NCBI GenBank assembly: GCA_007117035.1
Contig: SKHG01000036.1
Coordinates: forward strand, 7,595-71,594
Direction of reading: 5' to 3'
Length of the DNA: 64,000 nucleotides
DNA from: Candidatus Campbellbacteria bacterium
GTDB lineage: Bacteria; Patescibacteriota; Minisyncoccia; Phycocordibacterales; CSBR16-193
The notes beneath the pieces are model-generated. The model had not been told where the DNA came from, ran no database searches, and worked only from the letters and a program-made list of their open reading frames with translations. Positions 29,146 through 43,380 of this stretch are shown here, one piece after another. The position numbers were made by a program, and so were the translations under genes. How positions within the stretch are numbered: the first letter of the stretch is position 1; each line of letters opens with the position of its first letter.

Positions 29146-29219
29146 GGTGACCCTACCGGGAATCGAACCCGGATTTCAAGCTTGAGAAGCTTACGTCCTA
29201 ACCGTTAGACGATAGGGCC
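29146..29219 (-). tRNA. tRNA-Glu (anticodon CTC)
   Basis: Reverse complement GGCCCTATCGTCTAACGGTTAGGACG-TAAGC-TTCTCAA-GCTTG-AAA-TCCGGGTTCGATTCCCGG-TAGGGTC-ACC folds as a cloverleaf: 7-bp acceptor stem with one G.U pair, Glu-like D-loop, T-loop GGTTCGATTCC, anticodon loop TTCTCAA. Confidence 0.85.
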
Positions 29220-32109: not shown

Positions 32110-32337
32110 ATGGGAATGAAAAGTTTTTTAATGAAGAAGATGTTGAAGTCTAAACTAAAACACCTTCCTCAGGATCAGCAAGATAAAATAATTGCGGCTA
32201 TTGAAAAAAATCCGCAGTTGTTTGAAAAAATGGCTAAAGAAATCAAGCAGTTGACAAAAGAAGGACAGAACGAAACCGCTGCCTCAATGCAGGTTATGCG
32301 AAAGTATCAGGCAGAACTTCGTGATTTGATGATGTAA
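32110..32337 (+). CDS. hypothetical small basic protein (75 aa)
   Basis: ORF followed by an intrinsic terminator. Confidence 0.35.
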   Translation: MGMKSFLMKKMLKSKLKHLPQDQQDKIIAAIEKNPQLFEKMAKEIKQLTKEGQNETAASMQVMRKYQAELRDLMM

Positions 32338-32427: not shown

Positions 32428-33297
32428 ATGAGTAAAAATAAAAATCGTTTCTGGCTTTGGTTTTTGGTAATAATTACAATAGTTGTTTTACTTGCTGTTA
32501 TATTAAATCGTTCCGGAATAGAACCAAGGATGATAAGTGGTATTCAGATACCTGAAATTTCAGATCATAACTCTGTTCATTTTACTGAGGTTTCAGACAG
32601 AATTGGAGAAAACTTATGGGTATATGGTAATCTAGACCATGTTTTTGTGTCTTCTAACAATAATTATTTTCTGAATTTCTGTGAAGATTTCAGAGACTGT
32701 CCGTTTAACTCTGTAATTTTTTCAAATCATGCTGATCAGTTTAATGATATAGAAGGATGGGTTGGTGAGATCTATATATATGGCAATATTTCTTATTATC
32801 AAAATCGAGCACAAATCGTCATAGAATATTCAGAGCAGGTTCGAATTGAAGATATAGATAATGAACAAGTAGAAAATAACTCCCTATTGTTTGAAGTCAT
32901 GTCTGTAATCGACGGTGATACAATCGTGGTTCGCGTTAATGGTTCATCTGAGTTTGTGCGTCTAATCGGAATAGATACTCCAGAGGTTTCTGGTCCGCAT
33001 ACTTCACAGGAATGTTTCGGTGAGGAAGCTAGTGTAAGAGTAATGGAGCTTTTGGAAGGTCGAAGGGTTGTTCTACTTTCCGACCCTCAAGGAGATGATT
33101 ATGATAAGTATGGTCGTCTCCTCCGTTATGTTTTTACAGAGGATGGTCAACATGTAAACGCTATGTTGATTGAAGATGGGTATGCCTTCTATTTTCCATA
33201 TAAACCTTTTGTTTTTATGGATTACTTTGCAAGGTTGGAAAAAGGCGCAAGGAAGGATATGTTGGGACTCTGGGGTGATGTTTGCGATTATAGGTAA
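32428..33297 (+). CDS. membrane-anchored thermonuclease (staphylococcal nuclease/SNase fold)
   Basis: N-terminal TM; SNase-like core IDGDTIVVR...RLIGIDTPE...YGRLLRYVF. Confidence 0.7.
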   Translation: MSKNKNRFWLWFLVIITIVVLLAVILNRSGIEPRMISGIQIPEISDHNSVHFTEVSDRIGENLWVYGNLDHVFVSSNNNYFLNFCEDFRDCPFNSVIFSNHADQFNDIEGWVGEIYIYGNISYYQNRAQIVIEYSEQVRIEDIDNEQVENNSLLFEVMSVIDGDTIVVRVNGSSEFVRLIGIDTPEVSGPHTSQECFGEEASVRVMELLEGRRVVLLSDPQGDDYDKYGRLLRYVFTEDGQHVNAMLIEDGYAFYFPYKPFVFMDYFARLEKGARKDMLGLWGDVCDYR

Positions 33298-33363: not shown

Positions 33364-33762
33364 ATGCCTTATAAATTTCCAAAACCAACTAGTTATTTAT
33401 TAAAAGTTAAAAGAACAAAGGCTGGTCTTGGTTTGTTTGCTGACGAGTCAATTCCGCGCACGCAGTTCGTTATAGAGTACTTCGGAAGGATCTTAAGGGA
33501 CGAAGAGGTCAATTATAGGTCTGGTAAGTATCTTTTTGAGATTAATAATAATCTAACTATCGACGGTCGAACCCGGGAGAACAAAGCTAGGTACATCAAT
33601 CACTCTTGTAAACCAAACTGTCGAACTGATGTGTTTGGAAAAAGAATGTTTGTTTTTACTAAAAGAATGATAGAACCTGGTGAAGAATTAAGTTATGACT
33701 ACGGCAAAGAATACTTTGATGAGTTTATAAAACCTAACGGATGTAAGTGTGGAAATCATTAA
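33364..33762 (+). CDS. SET-domain protein (putative protein lysine methyltransferase)
   Basis: RYINHSCKPNC (NHSCxPN), ELSYDYG (ELxxDY) and post-SET cysteines GCKCGNH. Confidence 0.75.
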   Translation: MPYKFPKPTSYLLKVKRTKAGLGLFADESIPRTQFVIEYFGRILRDEEVNYRSGKYLFEINNNLTIDGRTRENKARYINHSCKPNCRTDVFGKRMFVFTKRMIEPGEELSYDYGKEYFDEFIKPNGCKCGNH

Positions 33763-33991
33763 TCTAATTATTCACAATTAGACCTTGTTAAATATAATTT
33801 TGTTAGTATAATTAAAATATGAAGCAAGCAAGAACAATTAAGGTCGTGAGTGTGATTGTTATTTCCACCAGAGGTGGAGGACTTGCTTATGTCTCTTAAA
33901 TAAATAAAAGTTTAGAAATATCAGCCAGCTCTTCACTAAAGATCTGGTTGTTCTTTTAATAAACAATCACAACCAAACGAAAGGAGTACCA

Positions 33992-34231
33992 ATGAAAGAA
34001 AAAATAAATAGTAATGAGTGTTCAGGCACTAATGGAAGTCACGACAGTCCTTTTCTTGCAAAAGGGGACTGGTGTAAATCAGATGATACTACCGGACTTC
34101 TTGATGTTTTTGGTGGAATGTGTCGAGCTCCGGCTCCGGCACAGTTTGCCACTAGCCTAAACAGTGATTCCAACCCTGAAACCCCATCATGGGAGTCTCC
34201 AAGAGGGTATGGATTAGTTTATGATGATTAG
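33992..34231 (+). CDS. small cysteine-containing acidic protein (79 aa), unknown function
   Basis: AAAGGAG RBS; own upstream promoter-like element and structured leader; strong terminator downstream. Confidence 0.45.
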   Translation: MKEKINSNECSGTNGSHDSPFLAKGDWCKSDDTTGLLDVFGGMCRAPAPAQFATSLNSDSNPETPSWESPRGYGLVYDD

Positions 34232-34458: not shown

Positions 34459-34794
34459 ATGAAGTCATTACGTAACGCAAGAAGAATAGGTATTGATCAA
34501 AACGACTCCATACTAATTGCAATGTGCATCACAGCATTAGTTGTAGCGATATATTTTATTCAGTCTGACGATCGCCAACCGGTAGTTGTTTATGCTGAAT
34601 ATATAATGCAGGGAGGAGATCCTGGAACCGCAGTGGATGACACTCTCACACTACGTGGGTTAGTGAGATATGTTGAGGTTGATGGAAAAAGGTACAATCG
34701 GAAGTGGTACCTAGAAAATTATGATAACCTTCGCTTAGTCGACTTGATCTGGATAGAACCACAGTTCAACGAAAGAGACGAAAGTCTCTACTAG
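34459..34794 (+). CDS. small membrane-anchored protein (111 aa), unknown function
   Basis: AGGAGG RBS; one TM (ILIAMCITALVVAIYFI); flanked by consensus promoter and terminator. Confidence 0.5.
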   Translation: MKSLRNARRIGIDQNDSILIAMCITALVVAIYFIQSDDRQPVVVYAEYIMQGGDPGTAVDDTLTLRGLVRYVEVDGKRYNRKWYLENYDNLRLVDLIWIEPQFNERDESLY

Positions 34795-34808
34795 GATTAA
34801 AACAAACA

Positions 34809-34839
34809 CCCGAACTCAAAACTGAGTTCGGGTTTTTTT
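34809..34839 (+). terminator. rho-independent terminator (cccgaactcaaaactgagttcggg plus T7)
   Basis: Read directly. Confidence 0.75.
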
Positions 34840-36387: not shown

Positions 36388-37458
36388 ATGAGAAAAGGAA
36401 TGCTACGTAACGTACTGTCGAATCTGAAAAGAATCGCAGTGCATTCGCGCATCCACCTCGATGAGGTGGTTGCAGTCTGGTTAATTTTCAAGTTTGGTGG
36501 AGATTTGATTAAAAATCTTCATGAACTTGAAATTATTGTCTGGCCGTCTGGTAATTCAACACCAGATGGCAAATCTGTAAGGAATCACATCCTTGCAGGT
36601 CTGCTACCGATAGGAGTCGGTGGAGGTGTAACAGACGAACACTCTCGCAACGGGAGTGGTCACTACGGTAAAAGTTCTGCAGAAATAATTGCAGAGCTTC
36701 TGGGGGTTCAGAATTTACCTGAACTTAAACAGATTCTGAAGATGGTTCACAGTGACGATGTCGAAGGATCCTCTAGTTTTGATCAGCTTGGACCATTGGT
36801 TCTTGCTTTGTCAAACGAGTGGGCAGATTCGCCAAAGTCTGTTGTAGACTACTTCAGCATTCTGTTAGATGCTCTATATGAAAGGCAGTGCCGATTTGTG
36901 GAGGGTAGAAAAGAGATTGCTCAGATTGAAAAGGAAGCACGGAAGGAAAGAGATGACTATCGTGTCCAATCAATCTGGATTCATGGTGAGAAGCTACGCC
37001 TTATAACAATTGAATCTGATAATGATCAAATTGTAAACTCGGCATGGAGCCGAGGATATGATGCGGTTATTAAAAGGTGTTCATCCGGACACACTCAGGT
37101 TTTGGCCAACAAAAGAGTAACGCTGGCAGAGTTAGATCGGGTTGCAACTCGATTAAGAATTAATGAGCTTCACCGGAGAGGAAAGGGTAACCAGATAAGA
37201 AAGACTAACCTTTCTTTGGACGGTCACCTTTCAGTAGCACCTGAGTGGTATTACCAGCGCGAGGCTGGAAGAATTATGAACGGATGCCATTCTGCTACCG
37301 GAGTCTCACCAACTCGCCTTTCACTGGAAGATATTCGCAAGATCGTTCTTGCGGCAATTAATCCTCCAGGAAGGAAGACTGTTCAAATAAAAAAGAGGGA
37401 AGAAGGGGGTTTATCCATAAATCGCGTCGCTGACGCAATGGAAAAAGTCTCTGTCTGA
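36388..37458 (+). CDS. hypothetical protein with MYG1/UPF0160-like (DHH-superfamily metal-dependent hydrolase) N-terminal motifs
   Basis: HSRIHLDEVVA resembles the FHxDEALA motif and GVGGGVTDEH the GGG..D..H motif of UPF0160; GC visibly higher than neighbours; family assignment tentative. Confidence 0.3.
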   Translation: MRKGMLRNVLSNLKRIAVHSRIHLDEVVAVWLIFKFGGDLIKNLHELEIIVWPSGNSTPDGKSVRNHILAGLLPIGVGGGVTDEHSRNGSGHYGKSSAEIIAELLGVQNLPELKQILKMVHSDDVEGSSSFDQLGPLVLALSNEWADSPKSVVDYFSILLDALYERQCRFVEGRKEIAQIEKEARKERDDYRVQSIWIHGEKLRLITIESDNDQIVNSAWSRGYDAVIKRCSSGHTQVLANKRVTLAELDRVATRLRINELHRRGKGNQIRKTNLSLDGHLSVAPEWYYQREAGRIMNGCHSATGVSPTRLSLEDIRKIVLAAINPPGRKTVQIKKREEGGLSINRVADAMEKVSV

Positions 37459-37603: not shown

Positions 37604-40600
37604 ATGCGTCAATACGATCATAAAAGAGTTGAGAAAAAATGGCAAAAAAGCTGGCAGAAAAGTAATCTATACAAGACTAAGGAAAGTAAAAAGAAAAAGT
37701 TTTACTGCTTAGATATGTTCCCTTATCCTTCAGGTGAAGGTCTGCACGTAGGTCACCCTAAAGGATATATTGCTACTGATATTATTTCTAGATACAAACG
37801 TATGACCGGTCATGATGTCTTACACCCAATGGGATGGGATGCATTCGGTCTACCAGCTGAAAATTATGCAATTAAGAACAAGATACATCCTGAAATGGCT
37901 GTAAAAAATAACGTAAAAAGATTTAAAAATCAGGTCTCAATTTTAGGTTTTGACTACGATTGGTCTCGCGAGATAAACACAACAGACCCAGAGTATTACA
38001 AATGGACTCAGTGGACATTTTTGCAGATGTACAAAAAAGGTTTAGCTTACGAATCAAATGAGCCTATTAATTGGTGTCCAAGTTGTAAAACTGGTTTAGC
38101 TAACGAGGATCTGGAGGATGGTAAATGTGAGAGGTGTAACTCTGAGATAGAACAACGTCCTATTCGTCAGTGGGTTCTTTCAATTACTAAGTATGCAGAC
38201 CGGTTGCTGAAAGACCTTAGTGGTCTTGATTGGCCAGAACATATTAAAGAACTACAAAGAAACTGGATTGGTCGATCTGAGGGATCTTTTATAAACTTTC
38301 AAGTAGGGGAAAAACTTCATTTTATCTTATTACATGGATACAAAGGTTCACCTCAAAAGAATTTTTTCCCGTGGTTAAAACTAGAGTTGGAAAAACAAGG
38401 TCACACTGTCGAAGTCCCTAAATTACCTAAAGCTGATAACCCCGATGTTTTAAAACAGGCTGAGTTTGTTTTGGATAATTGTAGATTAAACAAAGACACA
38501 GTTATTTTAGGACACAGTCATGGTGGATCAGTAGCTATGAAGGTTGTTGAGTCATTGAAAACTCCAATCAAGAGGCTTGTCCTGGCGGCTTCGTTTTTGG
38601 AGCCGAAAAGAAAGTATCAGACTGATTTTAATTGGCAGTATAATTTTGAAAAAATTAAAAAAAATTCTCAAAGAGTTACTGTTTTAAAAAGTCTTAAAGA
38701 CAGTGTTGTTCCTCCATCTGAGTCTGATAAAATTTCGGAAGTAACAAGTGGTGATTTGGTTATTATTAATCCTGAAGAAAACCATATTTGTGGTAAGGTG
38801 GAACCTAAAATTTTTAACGAACTTTCAACGGAGATTAAGATTTTTACAACACGTCCTGACACGATATTTGGTGCCACATACCTTGTTTTATCACCAGAAC
38901 ATTCTATGTTGAAAAGTTTGTGGGATAGAATAAAAAATAAAAAAGAAGTTCAGGTATATATAGACCAAGCTAGAAAAAAAACAGAGCTACAACGCACAAC
39001 CGAGGCAAAAGAAAAAACTGGTGTAGAATTAAAGGGAATCTTTGCTGTAAATCCAGCTACTAAGAAGCAAATACCTGTTTGGATTGCCGATTATGTTCTG
39101 ATTGGATATGGAACAGGAGCTATTATGGCTGTTCCAGCTCACGACGAACGTGATTTTGAGTTTGCTAATAAATTTAAATTACCTGTAAAAAAAGTGATTG
39201 AACCAAAGTTTACTGCTCTCTCAGGTGATGATGCAGTCCGTAAGGGTTTAGACTTTATTAAAAGAGAAGCTGTGTGTGCTGTTGTAAGAGATCCTAAAAC
39301 TGATAAATATTTATGTATCAGCTGGAAGGGAATTAATATGAATGGTTTGGTAACTGGTGGACTTGATGATGGAGAAGATTTGGTGGATGCTGGCCGTCGT
39401 GAAGTCTTTGAGGAAACTGGATATAAAAACTTAAAATTAATTAATGATCCTGATATTGCAATCCATAGTCTCTTTTATCATCGAGTTAAAAAAGTTAACA
39501 GGTGGGCCAGATTTCGTTATGTATTTTTTGAATTAGAAGATTACAGTAGAGAAGATGTGGACGATGTTGAAGCTTCATTACATGAAGTTGTTTGGAAGAG
39601 TAAGGAAGAAATGTCTAACTTTTTTTCGGTTGTTGAGGGTAGGTTTCTATTGAAGATTCTGGAGAATTCAGAAAATATTTATTTAAACGACGGTGTTTTA
39701 ATAAATTCTGGAGAGTTTACAAACCTAGACTCAGAAACAGCTCGAAAGATAATAGTTGAGAAGATTAAGGGGGAATTTACTGTTACTTATAGGCTGAAAG
39801 ATTGGGTGTTTTCTAGACAGAGATATTGGGGTGAACCAATACCATTGGTCCATTGTGAAAAATGTGGCGTTGTTCCTGTACCAGAGAATGATCTACCTGT
39901 TAAGTTGCCAAAGGTTAAAGACTATGAGCCTACCGGTACAGGTGAGTCACCTCTAGCTAATATCTCTTCTTGGGTAAATACAAACTGTCCAAAATGTAAC
40001 GGACAGGCACGTCGTGAGACTAATACTATGCCACAGTGGGCTGGTTCGTCTTGGTATTATTTGCGATACATTGATCCTGAAAACAAAAAAAGTTTAGTGT
40101 CATTAAAAAAAGAAAATCGGTGGATGCCTGTAGATGTTTATGTTGGTGGAGTTGAACACGCTACTCGTCATTTAATATACGCTAGATTTTGGCATAAGTT
40201 TTTGTATGATATTAAATCTGTTAGTACACTTGAACCGTTCCAGAAACTTAAGAGTCAAGGAATGATAAGTGGTCCAGATGGTCGAAAGATGAGTAAACGT
40301 TTTGGTAATGTAATTAATCCAGACACGGTGGTCTCTAATTACGGGGCTGATTCATTGCGTCTTTATGAAATGTTTATGGGACCTTTTGAGCAAGGTGGTT
40401 CCTGGAGTGATAAAAACATTATGGGTGTTAGAAGGTTCTTGGAAAGAGTGTGGAAGATATCTGATAAGATTAGTAAAAGTGCAGTTACTGAGGAGGCTGA
40501 CGAAGTTTTACTAAACAAAACGATTAAACAGGTAACCAAATCCATAGAAGATTTTTCCTTCAATACAGTGATATCTGATTTAATGATTTTGTCCAACAGA

Positions 40601-40957
40601 TTCTGGGACAAAGAAAGTATTAAGTTAAAGGAGTATGAGTCCTTATTGATACTTTTGGCTCCATTCGCACCACATATTACAGAGGAGCTTTGGCAGATGA
40701 TTGGTAAGAAGAAAAGCATTCATGTTGCTAAATGGCCAAGCTTCAACCCAGATAAATTGAAGGATAAAAATGTTAGTATTGTGATTCAAGTTAACGGAAA
40801 AGTTCGCGCAAAAATAGTAGTCGAACAGGGTTCTCAAAAAGGAGAAATACTTGAAAAGGTTAAAAATTTACCAGAGATATTAAAATGGATTCCTACTGAA
40901 AATTTAATTAAAAAGGAAATTTTTATCCCTGATCGATTAATTAATTTTGTAATTTAG
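37604..40957 (+). CDS. leuS: leucyl-tRNA synthetase (bacterial type), 1117 aa, with two inserted hydrolase domains: alpha/beta serine hydrolase at ~38315-38840 and Nudix at ~39200-39690
   Basis: HIGH region (PYPSGEGLHVGH), zinc knuckle CPSCKT...CERC, CP1 editing TTRPDT, AHDERDFEF, VLINSGEF, RLKDWVFSRQRYWGEPIP and KMSKR all in LeuRS order; extra domains described in findings. Confidence 0.9.
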   Translation: MRQYDHKRVEKKWQKSWQKSNLYKTKESKKKKFYCLDMFPYPSGEGLHVGHPKGYIATDIISRYKRMTGHDVLHPMGWDAFGLPAENYAIKNKIHPEMAVKNNVKRFKNQVSILGFDYDWSREINTTDPEYYKWTQWTFLQMYKKGLAYESNEPINWCPSCKTGLANEDLEDGKCERCNSEIEQRPIRQWVLSITKYADRLLKDLSGLDWPEHIKELQRNWIGRSEGSFINFQVGEKLHFILLHGYKGSPQKNFFPWLKLELEKQGHTVEVPKLPKADNPDVLKQAEFVLDNCRLNKDTVILGHSHGGSVAMKVVESLKTPIKRLVLAASFLEPKRKYQTDFNWQYNFEKIKKNSQRVTVLKSLKDSVVPPSESDKISEVTSGDLVIINPEENHICGKVEPKIFNELSTEIKIFTTRPDTIFGATYLVLSPEHSMLKSLWDRIKNKKEVQVYIDQARKKTELQRTTEAKEKTGVELKGIFAVNPATKKQIPVWIADYVLIGYGTGAIMAVPAHDERDFEFANKFKLPVKKVIEPKFTALSGDDAVRKGLDFIKREAVCAVVRDPKTDKYLCISWKGINMNGLVTGGLDDGEDLVDAGRREVFEETGYKNLKLINDPDIAIHSLFYHRVKKVNRWARFRYVFFELEDYSREDVDDVEASLHEVVWKSKEEMSNFFSVVEGRFLLKILENSENIYLNDGVLINSGEFTNLDSETARKIIVEKIKGEFTVTYRLKDWVFSRQRYWGEPIPLVHCEKCGVVPVPENDLPVKLPKVKDYEPTGTGESPLANISSWVNTNCPKCNGQARRETNTMPQWAGSSWYYLRYIDPENKKSLVSLKKENRWMPVDVYVGGVEHATRHLIYARFWHKFLYDIKSVSTLEPFQKLKSQGMISGPDGRKMSKRFGNVINPDTVVSNYGADSLRLYEMFMGPFEQGGSWSDKNIMGVRRFLERVWKISDKISKSAVTEEADEVLLNKTIKQVTKSIEDFSFNTVISDLMILSNRFWDKESIKLKEYESLLILLAPFAPHITEELWQMIGKKKSIHVAKWPSFNPDKLKDKNVSIVIQVNGKVRAKIVVEQGSQKGEILEKVKNLPEILKWIPTENLIKKEIFIPDRLINFVI

Positions 40958-42141: not shown

Positions 42142-43380
42142 ATGATCGAAAGTTTTTTAATTGAAAAATTTGGCGAAGGAGCTATTTTAGCTTATCAAGT
42201 GTTTTATATTTTATTGGCTATTTTAGTTCCTTCAATGTTACTTTTTTTTGCGTGGCGTTTTCGTCTAGCTTATTTAAAAAATGTTTTTTTTCGTAAAGAA
42301 GGTTGGACGCTTTTAGAGATACATATCCCAGAAGAAATAAAGAAGACTCCTCAGGCTATGGAAATGGTTTTGGAGTCTATGAATGTTGGTAGTGGAGAAA
42401 GTAACTTTATTATGCGTCTGTGGCACGGTATGACACGTCCTTGGTTTTCTCTAGAAATAGTTTCGTTTGAAGGACGAATAAGTTTTTTTATATGGACTCG
42501 AAAGCGTTGGAAAGCAGGTGTTGTTGCGGCAATCTATTCACAGTACCCCACAGTTGAGATTAACGAAGTTGATGACTACACCAAACAACTACCGACTGAT
42601 TTAGAAAAATATATCGTCTGGGGTTCAGAGATGGATCTTAAAAAGCCAGATCCTTATCCAATAAAGACATACAAGTATTATGAAATGGATAAAGATCAAG
42701 ATGAAGACCTGCAACCAAAGACAGACCCGTTGAGTTCTTTTATAGAAGCGCTTGGAAGCATTGGTCCGGGTGAGTATTTCTGTTTTCAGATTATAATAAG
42801 GAAACATAAAAAAGAAAAAAAGGTACAAGGTAGTTTGTTTAAAAAACAGAGCTGGCGTGAGGAAGGAAAAGAGATTGTTAAAAAATTAAAGACTGGTGAT
42901 CAGGTTAAGTCTGTTGGTGAGGATAATCAACCGATTATTATGCTTTCTAATATGGAACGAAGTTTTATTGAATCAATGGAAAGAAACCTCAGTAAACACG
43001 CTTTTGATTGTGGAATGAGAATTTTGTACATTACTGAAAAAAATTCCTTTGATGTGACTAGGCTTTCTACCATTCCTGGAGCATTAGGGCAGTTTGGAGA
43101 TGAAATACATAATTCTTTTGATAAAGCTCGAGGGCATGATCCTATGAACTGGTTTTGGCAGGATGTTGATAGAATACGAGGAGCAAGAATATCTAAAAGA
43201 ATATTTGATGCCTATAGATTTCGTGCATATTTTCATATGCCATACATATCTCCGCACTTTACGTTAAGCGCTGAAGAAGTGGCGTCTGTATTTCATTTTC
43301 CTGGAAAAGTGGTCACAACTCCAACTTTTGAGAGAATACGATCTAAAAAAGCTGAGGCTCCTGTAAACATTCCTCAGTAG
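42142..43380 (+). CDS. hypothetical membrane-anchored protein (412 aa)
   Basis: GGAGG RBS 8 nt upstream; N-terminal TM; likely co-transcribed with 41039..42121 (20-nt gap). Confidence 0.5.
   Translation: MIESFLIEKFGEGAILAYQVFYILLAILVPSMLLFFAWRFRLAYLKNVFFRKEGWTLLEIHIPEEIKKTPQAMEMVLESMNVGSGESNFIMRLWHGMTRPWFSLEIVSFEGRISFFIWTRKRWKAGVVAAIYSQYPTVEINEVDDYTKQLPTDLEKYIVWGSEMDLKKPDPYPIKTYKYYEMDKDQDEDLQPKTDPLSSFIEALGSIGPGEYFCFQIIIRKHKKEKKVQGSLFKKQSWREEGKEIVKKLKTGDQVKSVGEDNQPIIMLSNMERSFIESMERNLSKHAFDCGMRILYITEKNSFDVTRLSTIPGALGQFGDEIHNSFDKARGHDPMNWFWQDVDRIRGARISKRIFDAYRFRAYFHMPYISPHFTLSAEEVASVFHFPGKVVTTPTFERIRSKKAEAPVNIPQ

Follow-up and report, generated by a model that had tools for sequence, protein, structure and literature searches.

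A 132-residue SET-domain protein of a Patescibacterium, a predicted lysine methyltransferase with a compact post-SET motif

The DNA stretch analysed here, 64,000 nucleotides of contig SKHG01000036.1 from Candidatus Campbellbacteria bacterium (hereafter the window), carries a gene for a 132-residue SET-domain protein that is predicted to be a lysine methyltransferase (Table 1). The reduced-genome organism assumed in a first-pass annotation of this DNA agrees with the YchF protein encoded in the window, whose best named relatives (62–65% identity) come from Parcubacteria-type Patescibacteria, namely Campbellbacteria, Yonathbacteria, Nomurabacteria, Minisyncoccia and Paceibacterota. In the open reading frame (ORF) listing of the window, the SET gene starts with ATG and ends with TAA, and no overlapping competitor ORF of at least 40 residues is present in any frame. 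The ATG start is supported because the homologues share an N-terminal MPY...PR start. The protein matches the Pfam SET profile PF00856 over all of its positions (1–105 of 105) with a score of 88.8 bits (E = 3.8e-25), against a gathering cutoff of 22.4 bits; the other Pfam match, PRDM2_PR, is sub-threshold. This hidden Markov model match bears out the first-pass annotation, which had recognised a SET protein from NHSCKPNC (residues 79–86), ELSYDYG (residues 108–114) and GCKCGNH (residues 126–132), all of which are present. The gene product is a real and apparently functional SET-domain protein lysine methyltransferase, as judged from its sequence and a structural model. The GC content of the gene (35.6%) and its GC content at third codon positions (GC3, 32.3%) lie within one standard deviation of those of the window's genes, and a recent foreign acquisition was rejected on these grounds. 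The SET gene is a native, stand-alone chromosomal gene.

Motif conservation was assessed in a 31-sequence family alignment (A1), which also served as the input of an AlphaFold2 (AF2) model, and in a census of 178 relatives composed of 120 database proteins and ORFs from related genome loci. All four SET motifs (GxG, YxG, NHSCxPN and ELxF/YDY) are kept and are invariant or nearly so in both comparisons. EYxG occurs in 174 and NHSCxPN in 176 of the 178 relatives. NHSCxPN matches the ARYINHSC.PNC block of KMT2D identically, and motif IV aligns to EELTYDY of the same protein. Y113 is the invariant catalytic Tyr, and Y111 sits at the Phe/Tyr-switch position, where 168 of 174 relatives have Tyr. The minimal single-domain SET protein with intact catalytic and S-adenosylmethionine (AdoMet) motifs that was originally proposed is thus upheld by the conservation of G21/G23, Y39/G41, residues 79–85 and Y111/Y113 in the relatives, in which the catalytic Tyr and Asn positions are not degenerate. 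By sequence and model, the SET pseudoknot joins NHSCxPN to ELxYDY and thereby creates the AdoMet pocket and the lysine channel. Because Tyr occupies the switch position, mono- or di-methylation rather than tri-methylation would be expected by analogy with DIM-5 F281 and MLL1 Y3942, the residues that reportedly set the precedent for the switch.

Table 1. Positions of the SET gene, its predicted motifs and its nearest neighbours, counted from the first nucleotide of the window
Feature	Position	Strand	Remarks
Complete coding sequence of a predicted single-domain SET protein lysine methyltransferase	33364..33762	+	ORF, Pfam SET, AF2, Foldseek
SET motif I, G21-L22-G23 (GxG, AdoMet pocket)	33424..33432	+	G21 and G23 invariant in A1; aligns to GLGL of KMT2D and KMT2C
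SET motif II, E38-Y39-F40-G41 (YxG)	33475..33486	+	E38, Y39 and G41 invariant in A1
SET motif III, N79-H80-S81-C82-K83-P84-N85-C86 (NHSCxPN)	33598..33621	+	N79, H80, C82, P84 and N85 invariant in A1
SET motif IV, E108-L-S-Y111-D-Y113-G114 (ELSYDYG)	33685..33705	+	E108, Y113 and G114 invariant in A1; Y111 at least 90% conserved
Compact non-canonical post-SET, C127-K-C129-G-N-H132 (CxCx2H)	33742..33759	+	C127 and C129 invariant
Membrane-anchored SNase-family nuclease (context only)	32428..33297	+	Pfam SNase PF00565, 71.4 bits, residues 177–283; 66 bp upstream of SET
Small ORF, 79 aa (context only)	33992..34231	+	No recognisable family
Small ORF, 111 aa (context only)	34459..34794	+	No recognisable family

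The C-terminus of the protein is formed by the GCKCGNH segment (nucleotides 33739–33759), which is directly followed by TAA, and H132 is the last residue. The first-pass annotation had called the post-SET element intact. The Cys cluster is present with C127 and C129 invariant, but its spacing is CxCx2H at the very terminus and not the canonical CxCx4C of the MLL1, DIM-5, SUV39H2 and G9a type. At position +3 from the second Cys, 119 of the 178 relatives have Cys and 51 have His (170/178, 96%), and 27 relatives terminate exactly at the +3 His, like the window protein, which falls in a minority His-type, tail-less subgroup. CxCx4C spacing was found in one of 175 scored clade members. Other bacterial SET subfamilies (P0128, P0213, P0238 and the SET-GNAT fusion P0245) keep CxCx4C, and the compact motif therefore marks this clade. 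P0245 itself (284 residues) is a bacterial protein outside the clade, in which a SET domain of the canonical CxCx4C subtype is fused to a GNAT acetyltransferase domain.

The compact motif is consistent with a zinc site. C82, the SET-core Cys of NHSCxPN that provides the fourth zinc ligand in homologous enzymes, is present and invariant. In SMYD3, the post-SET zinc is bound by Cys261, Cys263 and Cys266 (CxCx2C) together with the SET-core residue Cys208 (PMC3105404). H132 is very probably a zinc ligand that completes the post-SET set, since its position is restricted to Cys or His beside two invariant Cys residues, which is a metal-ligand signature, and since SMYD3 binds zinc with the same spacing plus a SET-core Cys. 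C82, C127, C129 and H132 would bind one zinc ion in a Cys3His arrangement, as a variant of the Cys4 site predicted for most clade members, with SMYD3-like spacing. The predicted zinc would close a minimal post-SET lid over the cofactor and the substrate channel.

The AF2 model of the protein has a predicted local distance difference test (pLDDT) score of 87.2 and a predicted template modelling score of 0.80. The best Foldseek matches of the model are SET crystal structures of G9a and GLP, with query-normalised template modelling (TM) scores of 0.84–0.87, root-mean-square deviation values of 1.7–2.1 Å and 36% identity, and the superposition spans essentially all 132 residues, including the post-SET segment. 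The predicted structure adopts the SET β-fold with a C-terminal pseudoknot.

Based on sequence comparison, the window protein belongs to a large and widespread clade of small prokaryotic SET proteins with a CxCx2[C/H] motif. The clade is defined here by a length of mostly 126–183 residues (a few members are longer), an identity of at least about 50%, CxC followed by Cys or His at +3, and the switch Tyr. A word-indexed protein search gave more than 6,000 matches; the best 120, which were examined, are all single-domain proteins of 126–183 residues with 53–64% identity, and the sources named among them are Paceibacterota, Uhrbacteria, Kaiserbacteria, Azambacteria, Niyogibacteria and one KSB1. 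Clade members are already annotated in databases as SET-domain lysine methyltransferases, and the window gene is one more member: the entries named 'SET domain-containing protein-lysine N-methyltransferase' from Candidatus Paceibacterota, Niyogibacteria, Kaiserbacteria, Uhrbacteria and Azambacteria share its clade, length class, motifs and compact post-SET. One genome per GTDB species was scanned, and at least 590 of these genomes, mostly from Patescibacteria, encode a close relative. Further carriers belong to Alphaproteobacteria (Methyloceanibacter, including the cultured M. marginalis R-67177, Hyphomonadaceae and Caulobacterales), Spirochaetota and Acidobacteria (Pyrinomonadaceae), with 50–59% identity. 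At E ≤ 1e-3, an exhaustive HMMER search of 1.84 billion representatives of 50%-identity clusters retrieved 10,552 clusters, and at E ≤ 1e-10 there were 1,496. These numbers contradict the initial remark on the rarity of bacterial SET proteins.

The relationship to eukaryotic SET proteins was examined by score and by tree. Short proteins make up nearly all of the best 150 of the 10,552 clusters, and none of the 150 scores below 85 bits, versus 73.9 bits for the best eukaryotic Protein Data Bank (PDB) match. In a neighbour-joining tree without bootstrap, which is indicative only, KMT2C/D and a bacterial protein with a canonical post-SET fall outside the clade. A recent transfer from eukaryotes was rejected on both grounds. 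The phylogenetic placement called for in the first-pass annotation thus puts the window protein inside a prokaryotic clade, where it lies in a mostly His-type subclade with copies from Peribacteria, Andersenbacteria and Uhrbacteria. Copies from Alphaproteobacteria and spirochaetes branch within those of Patescibacteria, which suggests that SET genes of this clade have been transferred between bacteria. Several loci (L004, L006, L007, L017 and others) carry metagenome-assembled genome titles of 'uncultured Gammaproteobacteria' or 'Saccharibacteria' from binchicken co-assemblies, and their SET genes group with those of Patescibacteria. The GC contents of these loci range from 35 to 64%; the taxon labels seem to be unreliable placeholders, and no evidence was drawn from them.

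Many clade members bear low-complexity C-terminal tails that are rich in Lys, Arg and Ala (e.g. AKAGKAKAKSANTKSAKTKSAKSKS) and consist on average of 39% Lys plus Arg. Long basic tails are found in P0134, P0135, P0156, P0162, P0205 and others and resemble the tails of histone H1 and of bacterial nucleoid proteins. The longer relatives contain no fused domain other than the basic tails, apart from the one SET-GNAT fusion of the CxCx4C subfamily. Two features of the clade deserve note, its compact Cys4/Cys3His post-SET and the basic tails that many members have. In P0121 (264 residues), two complete clade SET units are arranged head to tail, each with its own CxCxxC. This tandem fusion hints that the single-domain proteins may function as homodimers, as vSET does according to reviews.

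The surroundings of the SET gene are as first described, with a membrane-anchored SNase-family nuclease upstream and family-less ORFs of 79 and 111 residues downstream. The nuclease has an N-terminal hydrophobic anchor at residues 8–26 (FWLWFLVIITIVVLLAVIL; Kyte–Doolittle mean 3.09), which is followed by about 120 residues (30–150) without a family match ahead of the nuclease domain. The PADLOC model C3a212 'SNc+LTD' matches the nuclease part of this protein only. The protein may serve an episymbiont as a nuclease that scavenges DNA at the cell surface. Neither small ORF matches anything in Pfam, PHROGs or PADLOC.

The relevance that had been attached to these neighbours is not borne out. The 14 window neighbours were compared by tblastn with 80 related genome loci, and homologues of the SNase gene and of the two small ORFs stand beside SET in none of the 80. 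Unbiased clustering of all neighbouring ORFs gave no family in more than 7 of the 80 loci; a 15-locus ORF cluster consists of antisense ORFs that overlap SET in high-GC genomes. The three closest relatives examined lie in unrelated contexts, one of them with an SNase gene 1.8 kb away on the opposite strand. Since the SNase and small-ORF surroundings are not conserved, they carry no functional information, and a conserved neighbourhood was rejected as a guide to function for want of a recurring partner gene in the 80 loci. Nothing was found that would link the SNase and SET genes functionally. No terminator was found in the 66-bp gap between the two genes, and co-transcription is therefore possible.

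Other features of the vicinity were recorded as well. Two genes upstream of SET, a 75-residue ORF (32110..32337, +) has a 42%-identical homologue in Kaiserbacteria locus L070 (4706–4927), where it directly follows the SET gene and precedes ychF. Of the small neighbours, this ORF alone shows any conservation. This sharing is probably residual synteny because the homologue occurs in just one of the 80 loci. Right after the SET stop codon, near-consensus sigma-70-like promoter matches of 11/12 and 10/12 are found at 33771–33812 and 33862–33880 (+). Promoter-like matches are not above background in this AT-rich DNA (13 versus a shuffled expectation of 14.5). Behind the sigma-70-like matches, the 229-bp spacer that leads to the 79-residue ORF contains a GC-rich hairpin that lacks a T-run. 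The ORF itself has a good ribosome-binding site (AAAGGAG). An Rfam scan found no family in this spacer, and the only structured RNA nearby is a tRNA at 29148–29219. After the 111-residue ORF, a perfect hairpin with an 11-bp stem and T-runs on both strands (34808–34833) has the form of a strong bidirectional intrinsic terminator.

The SET gene is set among housekeeping genes, which include an mraZ-rsmH-ftsI-murE cluster, pgi, a ROK kinase gene, ychF, leuS, a sigma factor gene, yceG, mnmA and an enolase gene. An anti-phage defence role or a phage origin of the SET gene was rejected, as PADLOC gave no match and PHROGs a sub-threshold match only. The leucyl-tRNA synthetase (LeuRS; 37604..40957, +; 1117 residues) has an unusual LeuRS architecture, with a Ser_hydrolase match (residues 241–395, 27.7 bits, cutoff 22) before the editing domain (residues 408–537) and a NUDIX match (residues 554–670, 38.1 bits, cutoff 21.1) after it. 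Between ychF and leuS, a 356-residue ORF (36388..37458, +) has no Pfam, PHROGs or PADLOC match. A 412-residue DUF8128 protein (42142..43380, +) is encoded after a sigma-70-like protein with a faint HARE-HTH match.

The reading that we favour, with moderate confidence, is that the window protein is a cytoplasmic AdoMet-dependent SET lysine methyltransferase that mono- or di-methylates an endogenous basic, nucleic-acid-associated protein. The enzyme would be reduced to a bare SET core and a six-residue zinc knuckle and is predicted to be catalytically competent. It would remain in the cytoplasm, with one or several endogenous proteins as substrates, the likeliest target being an abundant basic nucleic-acid-associated protein of the nucleoid or the ribosome. 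A cytoplasmic location is suggested because the protein has no hydrophobic segment anywhere; its highest 15-residue Kyte–Doolittle mean is 0.54, versus 3.09 for the SNase anchor. An endogenous substrate is suggested because close relatives occur not only in Patescibacteria but also in free-living lineages such as Methyloceanibacter, Caulobacterales and Pyrinomonadaceae, and both parts of the reading are supported by the native GC and GC3, the housekeeping surroundings and the lack of a match in the defence and phage libraries. A nucleic-acid-associated substrate is suggested by the basic character of the enzyme (isoelectric point 9.26), by the H1-like tails of its relatives and by two precedents: Go1-SET methylates the endogenous archaeal chromosomal protein MC1-alpha (reviews), and cpnSET has been reported to methylate Hc1 and Hc2, with discordant results for Hc1.

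Several points weigh against this reading. The literature searched holds no biochemical evidence for any clade member, no conserved neighbour or operon partner indicates a substrate, and the window protein itself lacks a basic tail. The AF2 confidence is lower at the last residues (pLDDT ~69), and just one tandem SET fusion was found. The Phe/Tyr-switch rule has been generalised empirically from enzymes of eukaryotes. Patescibacteria are typically episymbionts. The secretion check proposed in the first-pass annotation detected no hydrophobic N-terminal signal, but type III secretion system, type IV secretion system (T4SS) or contact-dependent transfer signals are not recognisable from sequence here.

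A broader proposal, which we put forward as tentative, is that the clade represents a widespread endogenous bacterial 'chromatin-writer' that marks nucleoid-associated proteins. The enzymes would be recruited to the nucleoid through a basic H1-like tail of their own or, where the tail is missing, through a basic surface, and they would be kept in the ultra-reduced genomes of Patescibacteria as regulators of genome packaging or expression. If so, lysine-methyl marks on chromosomal proteins would be a common bacterial trait, and not a eukaryotic and archaeal one only.

The enzyme might instead act as a housekeeping modifier of universally conserved translation or transcription machinery (such as RNA polymerase, an elongation factor or a protein of the ribosome) rather than as a nucleoid regulator, which we consider rather unlikely. 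An unusually high identity of 50–60% across Patescibacteria, Alphaproteobacteria, Spirochaetota and Acidobacteria would fit a conserved substrate, and the basic tails of the relatives would bind rRNA as readily as DNA. The SET gene lies near ychF and aminoacyl-tRNA synthetase genes in the window, but no linkage to ribosomal or translation genes is conserved among the loci. Eukaryotic and plastid SET enzymes methylate ribosomal proteins, as exemplified by Rkm1 acting on uL14 (PMC11248248); however, the patchy distribution and nested tree of the present clade look like those of a horizontally spread accessory gene, to the extent that an unbootstrapped tree can indicate.

Delivery of the SET enzyme into a bacterial, archaeal or eukaryotic host cell, where it would methylate chromatin or other proteins in the manner of NUE, RomA/LegAS4, BtSET and BaSET, is unlikely in our estimate. 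The first-pass annotation had left the choice between an effector and an endogenous role undecided; the endogenous role is the likelier one, and the effector role is weakly disfavoured by the absence of a hydrophobic signal, the free-living relatives and the housekeeping context. All experimentally characterised bacterial SET proteins covered by reviews are secreted nucleomodulins of host-associated bacteria, whereas relatives of the window protein at 50–59% identity occur in free-living Alphaproteobacteria and Acidobacteria. The organism belongs to a reduced-genome and largely host-attached group, yet the known hosts of Patescibacteria are, as is generally held, mostly prokaryotes without H3/H4-type tails, the protein has no signal peptide or hydrophobic segment, and no secretion-system gene is found in the 64-kb window. 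The sole NCBIfam match, T4SS_AnkI (the Legionella effector AnkI/LegAS4), reaches 24.6 bits against a cutoff of 550 bits and covers the shared SET core only; equivalence to a known effector (NUE, RomA/LegAS4/AnkI, BtSET or BaSET) was rejected on this basis. The nearest solved structures are eukaryotic histone methyltransferases, but the at least 150 mostly short-protein clusters that outscore the best eukaryotic PDB match argue against a recent eukaryotic acquisition. An inactive SET-fold protein, serving as a binding module or pseudoenzyme with a truncated post-SET that is unable to close the active site, would account for the shortened post-SET, the abrupt end at H132 and the falling AF2 confidence, but it is highly improbable given that every catalytic and AdoMet motif is intact and strongly conserved, that the compact motif is the norm of the clade and matches the functional zinc site of SMYD3, and that the 27 relatives stopping at the same His argue for a selected, functional terminus.

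The wider interest of the gene lies in its clade, which is abundant, strongly conserved across phyla and concentrated in Patescibacteria. These bacteria retain very few non-essential genes. Reviews on prokaryotic SET proteins deal with pathogen effectors and Go1-SET only, and no paper on this clade or on SET proteins in Patescibacteria (candidate phyla radiation) was found in the literature searched. Identification of the substrate would tell whether bacteria commonly methylate lysines of their own chromosomal or ribosomal proteins, and it would inform the long-running debate on a prokaryotic origin of SET enzymes. With its 132 residues, the enzyme also offers an attractive minimal scaffold for structural studies of how small a working SET and post-SET unit can be.

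Among proteins of solved structure, the best sequence matches of the window protein are the SET domains of the KMT2 (MLL/trithorax) family, KMT2D (4z4p), KMT2C (5f59) and KMT2A (2w5y), with E values of ~1e-19; KMT2D shares 38% identity in the Foldseek alignment. The GLGL, VIEY.G, ARYINHSC.PNC and EEL.YDY blocks are identical, and the switch Tyr is common to the window protein and the mono- and di-methylating MLL1. In contrast to KMT2, the window protein has an SET-I region that is ~8 residues shorter, CxCx2H in place of CxCx4C, no flanking N-SET or WIN region and no complex partners. By these sequence features, the window protein is not a KMT2 family member, as it lacks the flanking regions and its prokaryotic relatives are closer. 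G9a and GLP (EHMT2 and EHMT1), the best structural matches, own a large Zn3Cys9 pre-SET, ankyrin repeats and a canonical post-SET, all three of which are missing from the window protein.

Closer in size are Go1-SET of Methanosarcina, cpnSET/NUE of Chlamydia, BaSET of Bacillus anthracis and vSET of PBCV-1, which are likened here by description: they are also single-domain, non-eukaryotic proteins of ~120–220 residues. NUE and BaSET, like RomA and BtSET, are secreted pathogen effectors, whereas the window protein shows no indication of secretion. Viral SET models share at most 28% identity with the window protein, with query-normalised TM scores of at most 0.75. The PBCV-1 vSET type, an obligate dimer with a ~119-residue core and no post-SET zinc motif, was rejected because a Cys/His post-SET is present and the gene is chromosomal with native composition. 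In the SMYD proteins, the SET domain is split by a MYND insertion and followed by a TPR-like C-terminal domain, whereas the window protein is one contiguous SET domain. Membership of the SMYD family was rejected, as neither a MYND nor a TPR domain was found and SET is the only Pfam domain, and no specific sequence kinship to SMYD beyond the post-SET spacing was detected. The likeness to SMYD3 resides in this one feature, the C-x-C-x2-C spacing with a fourth ligand from the SET-core Cys, in which the last ligand of the window protein is predicted to be a His that is at the same time the C-terminal residue.

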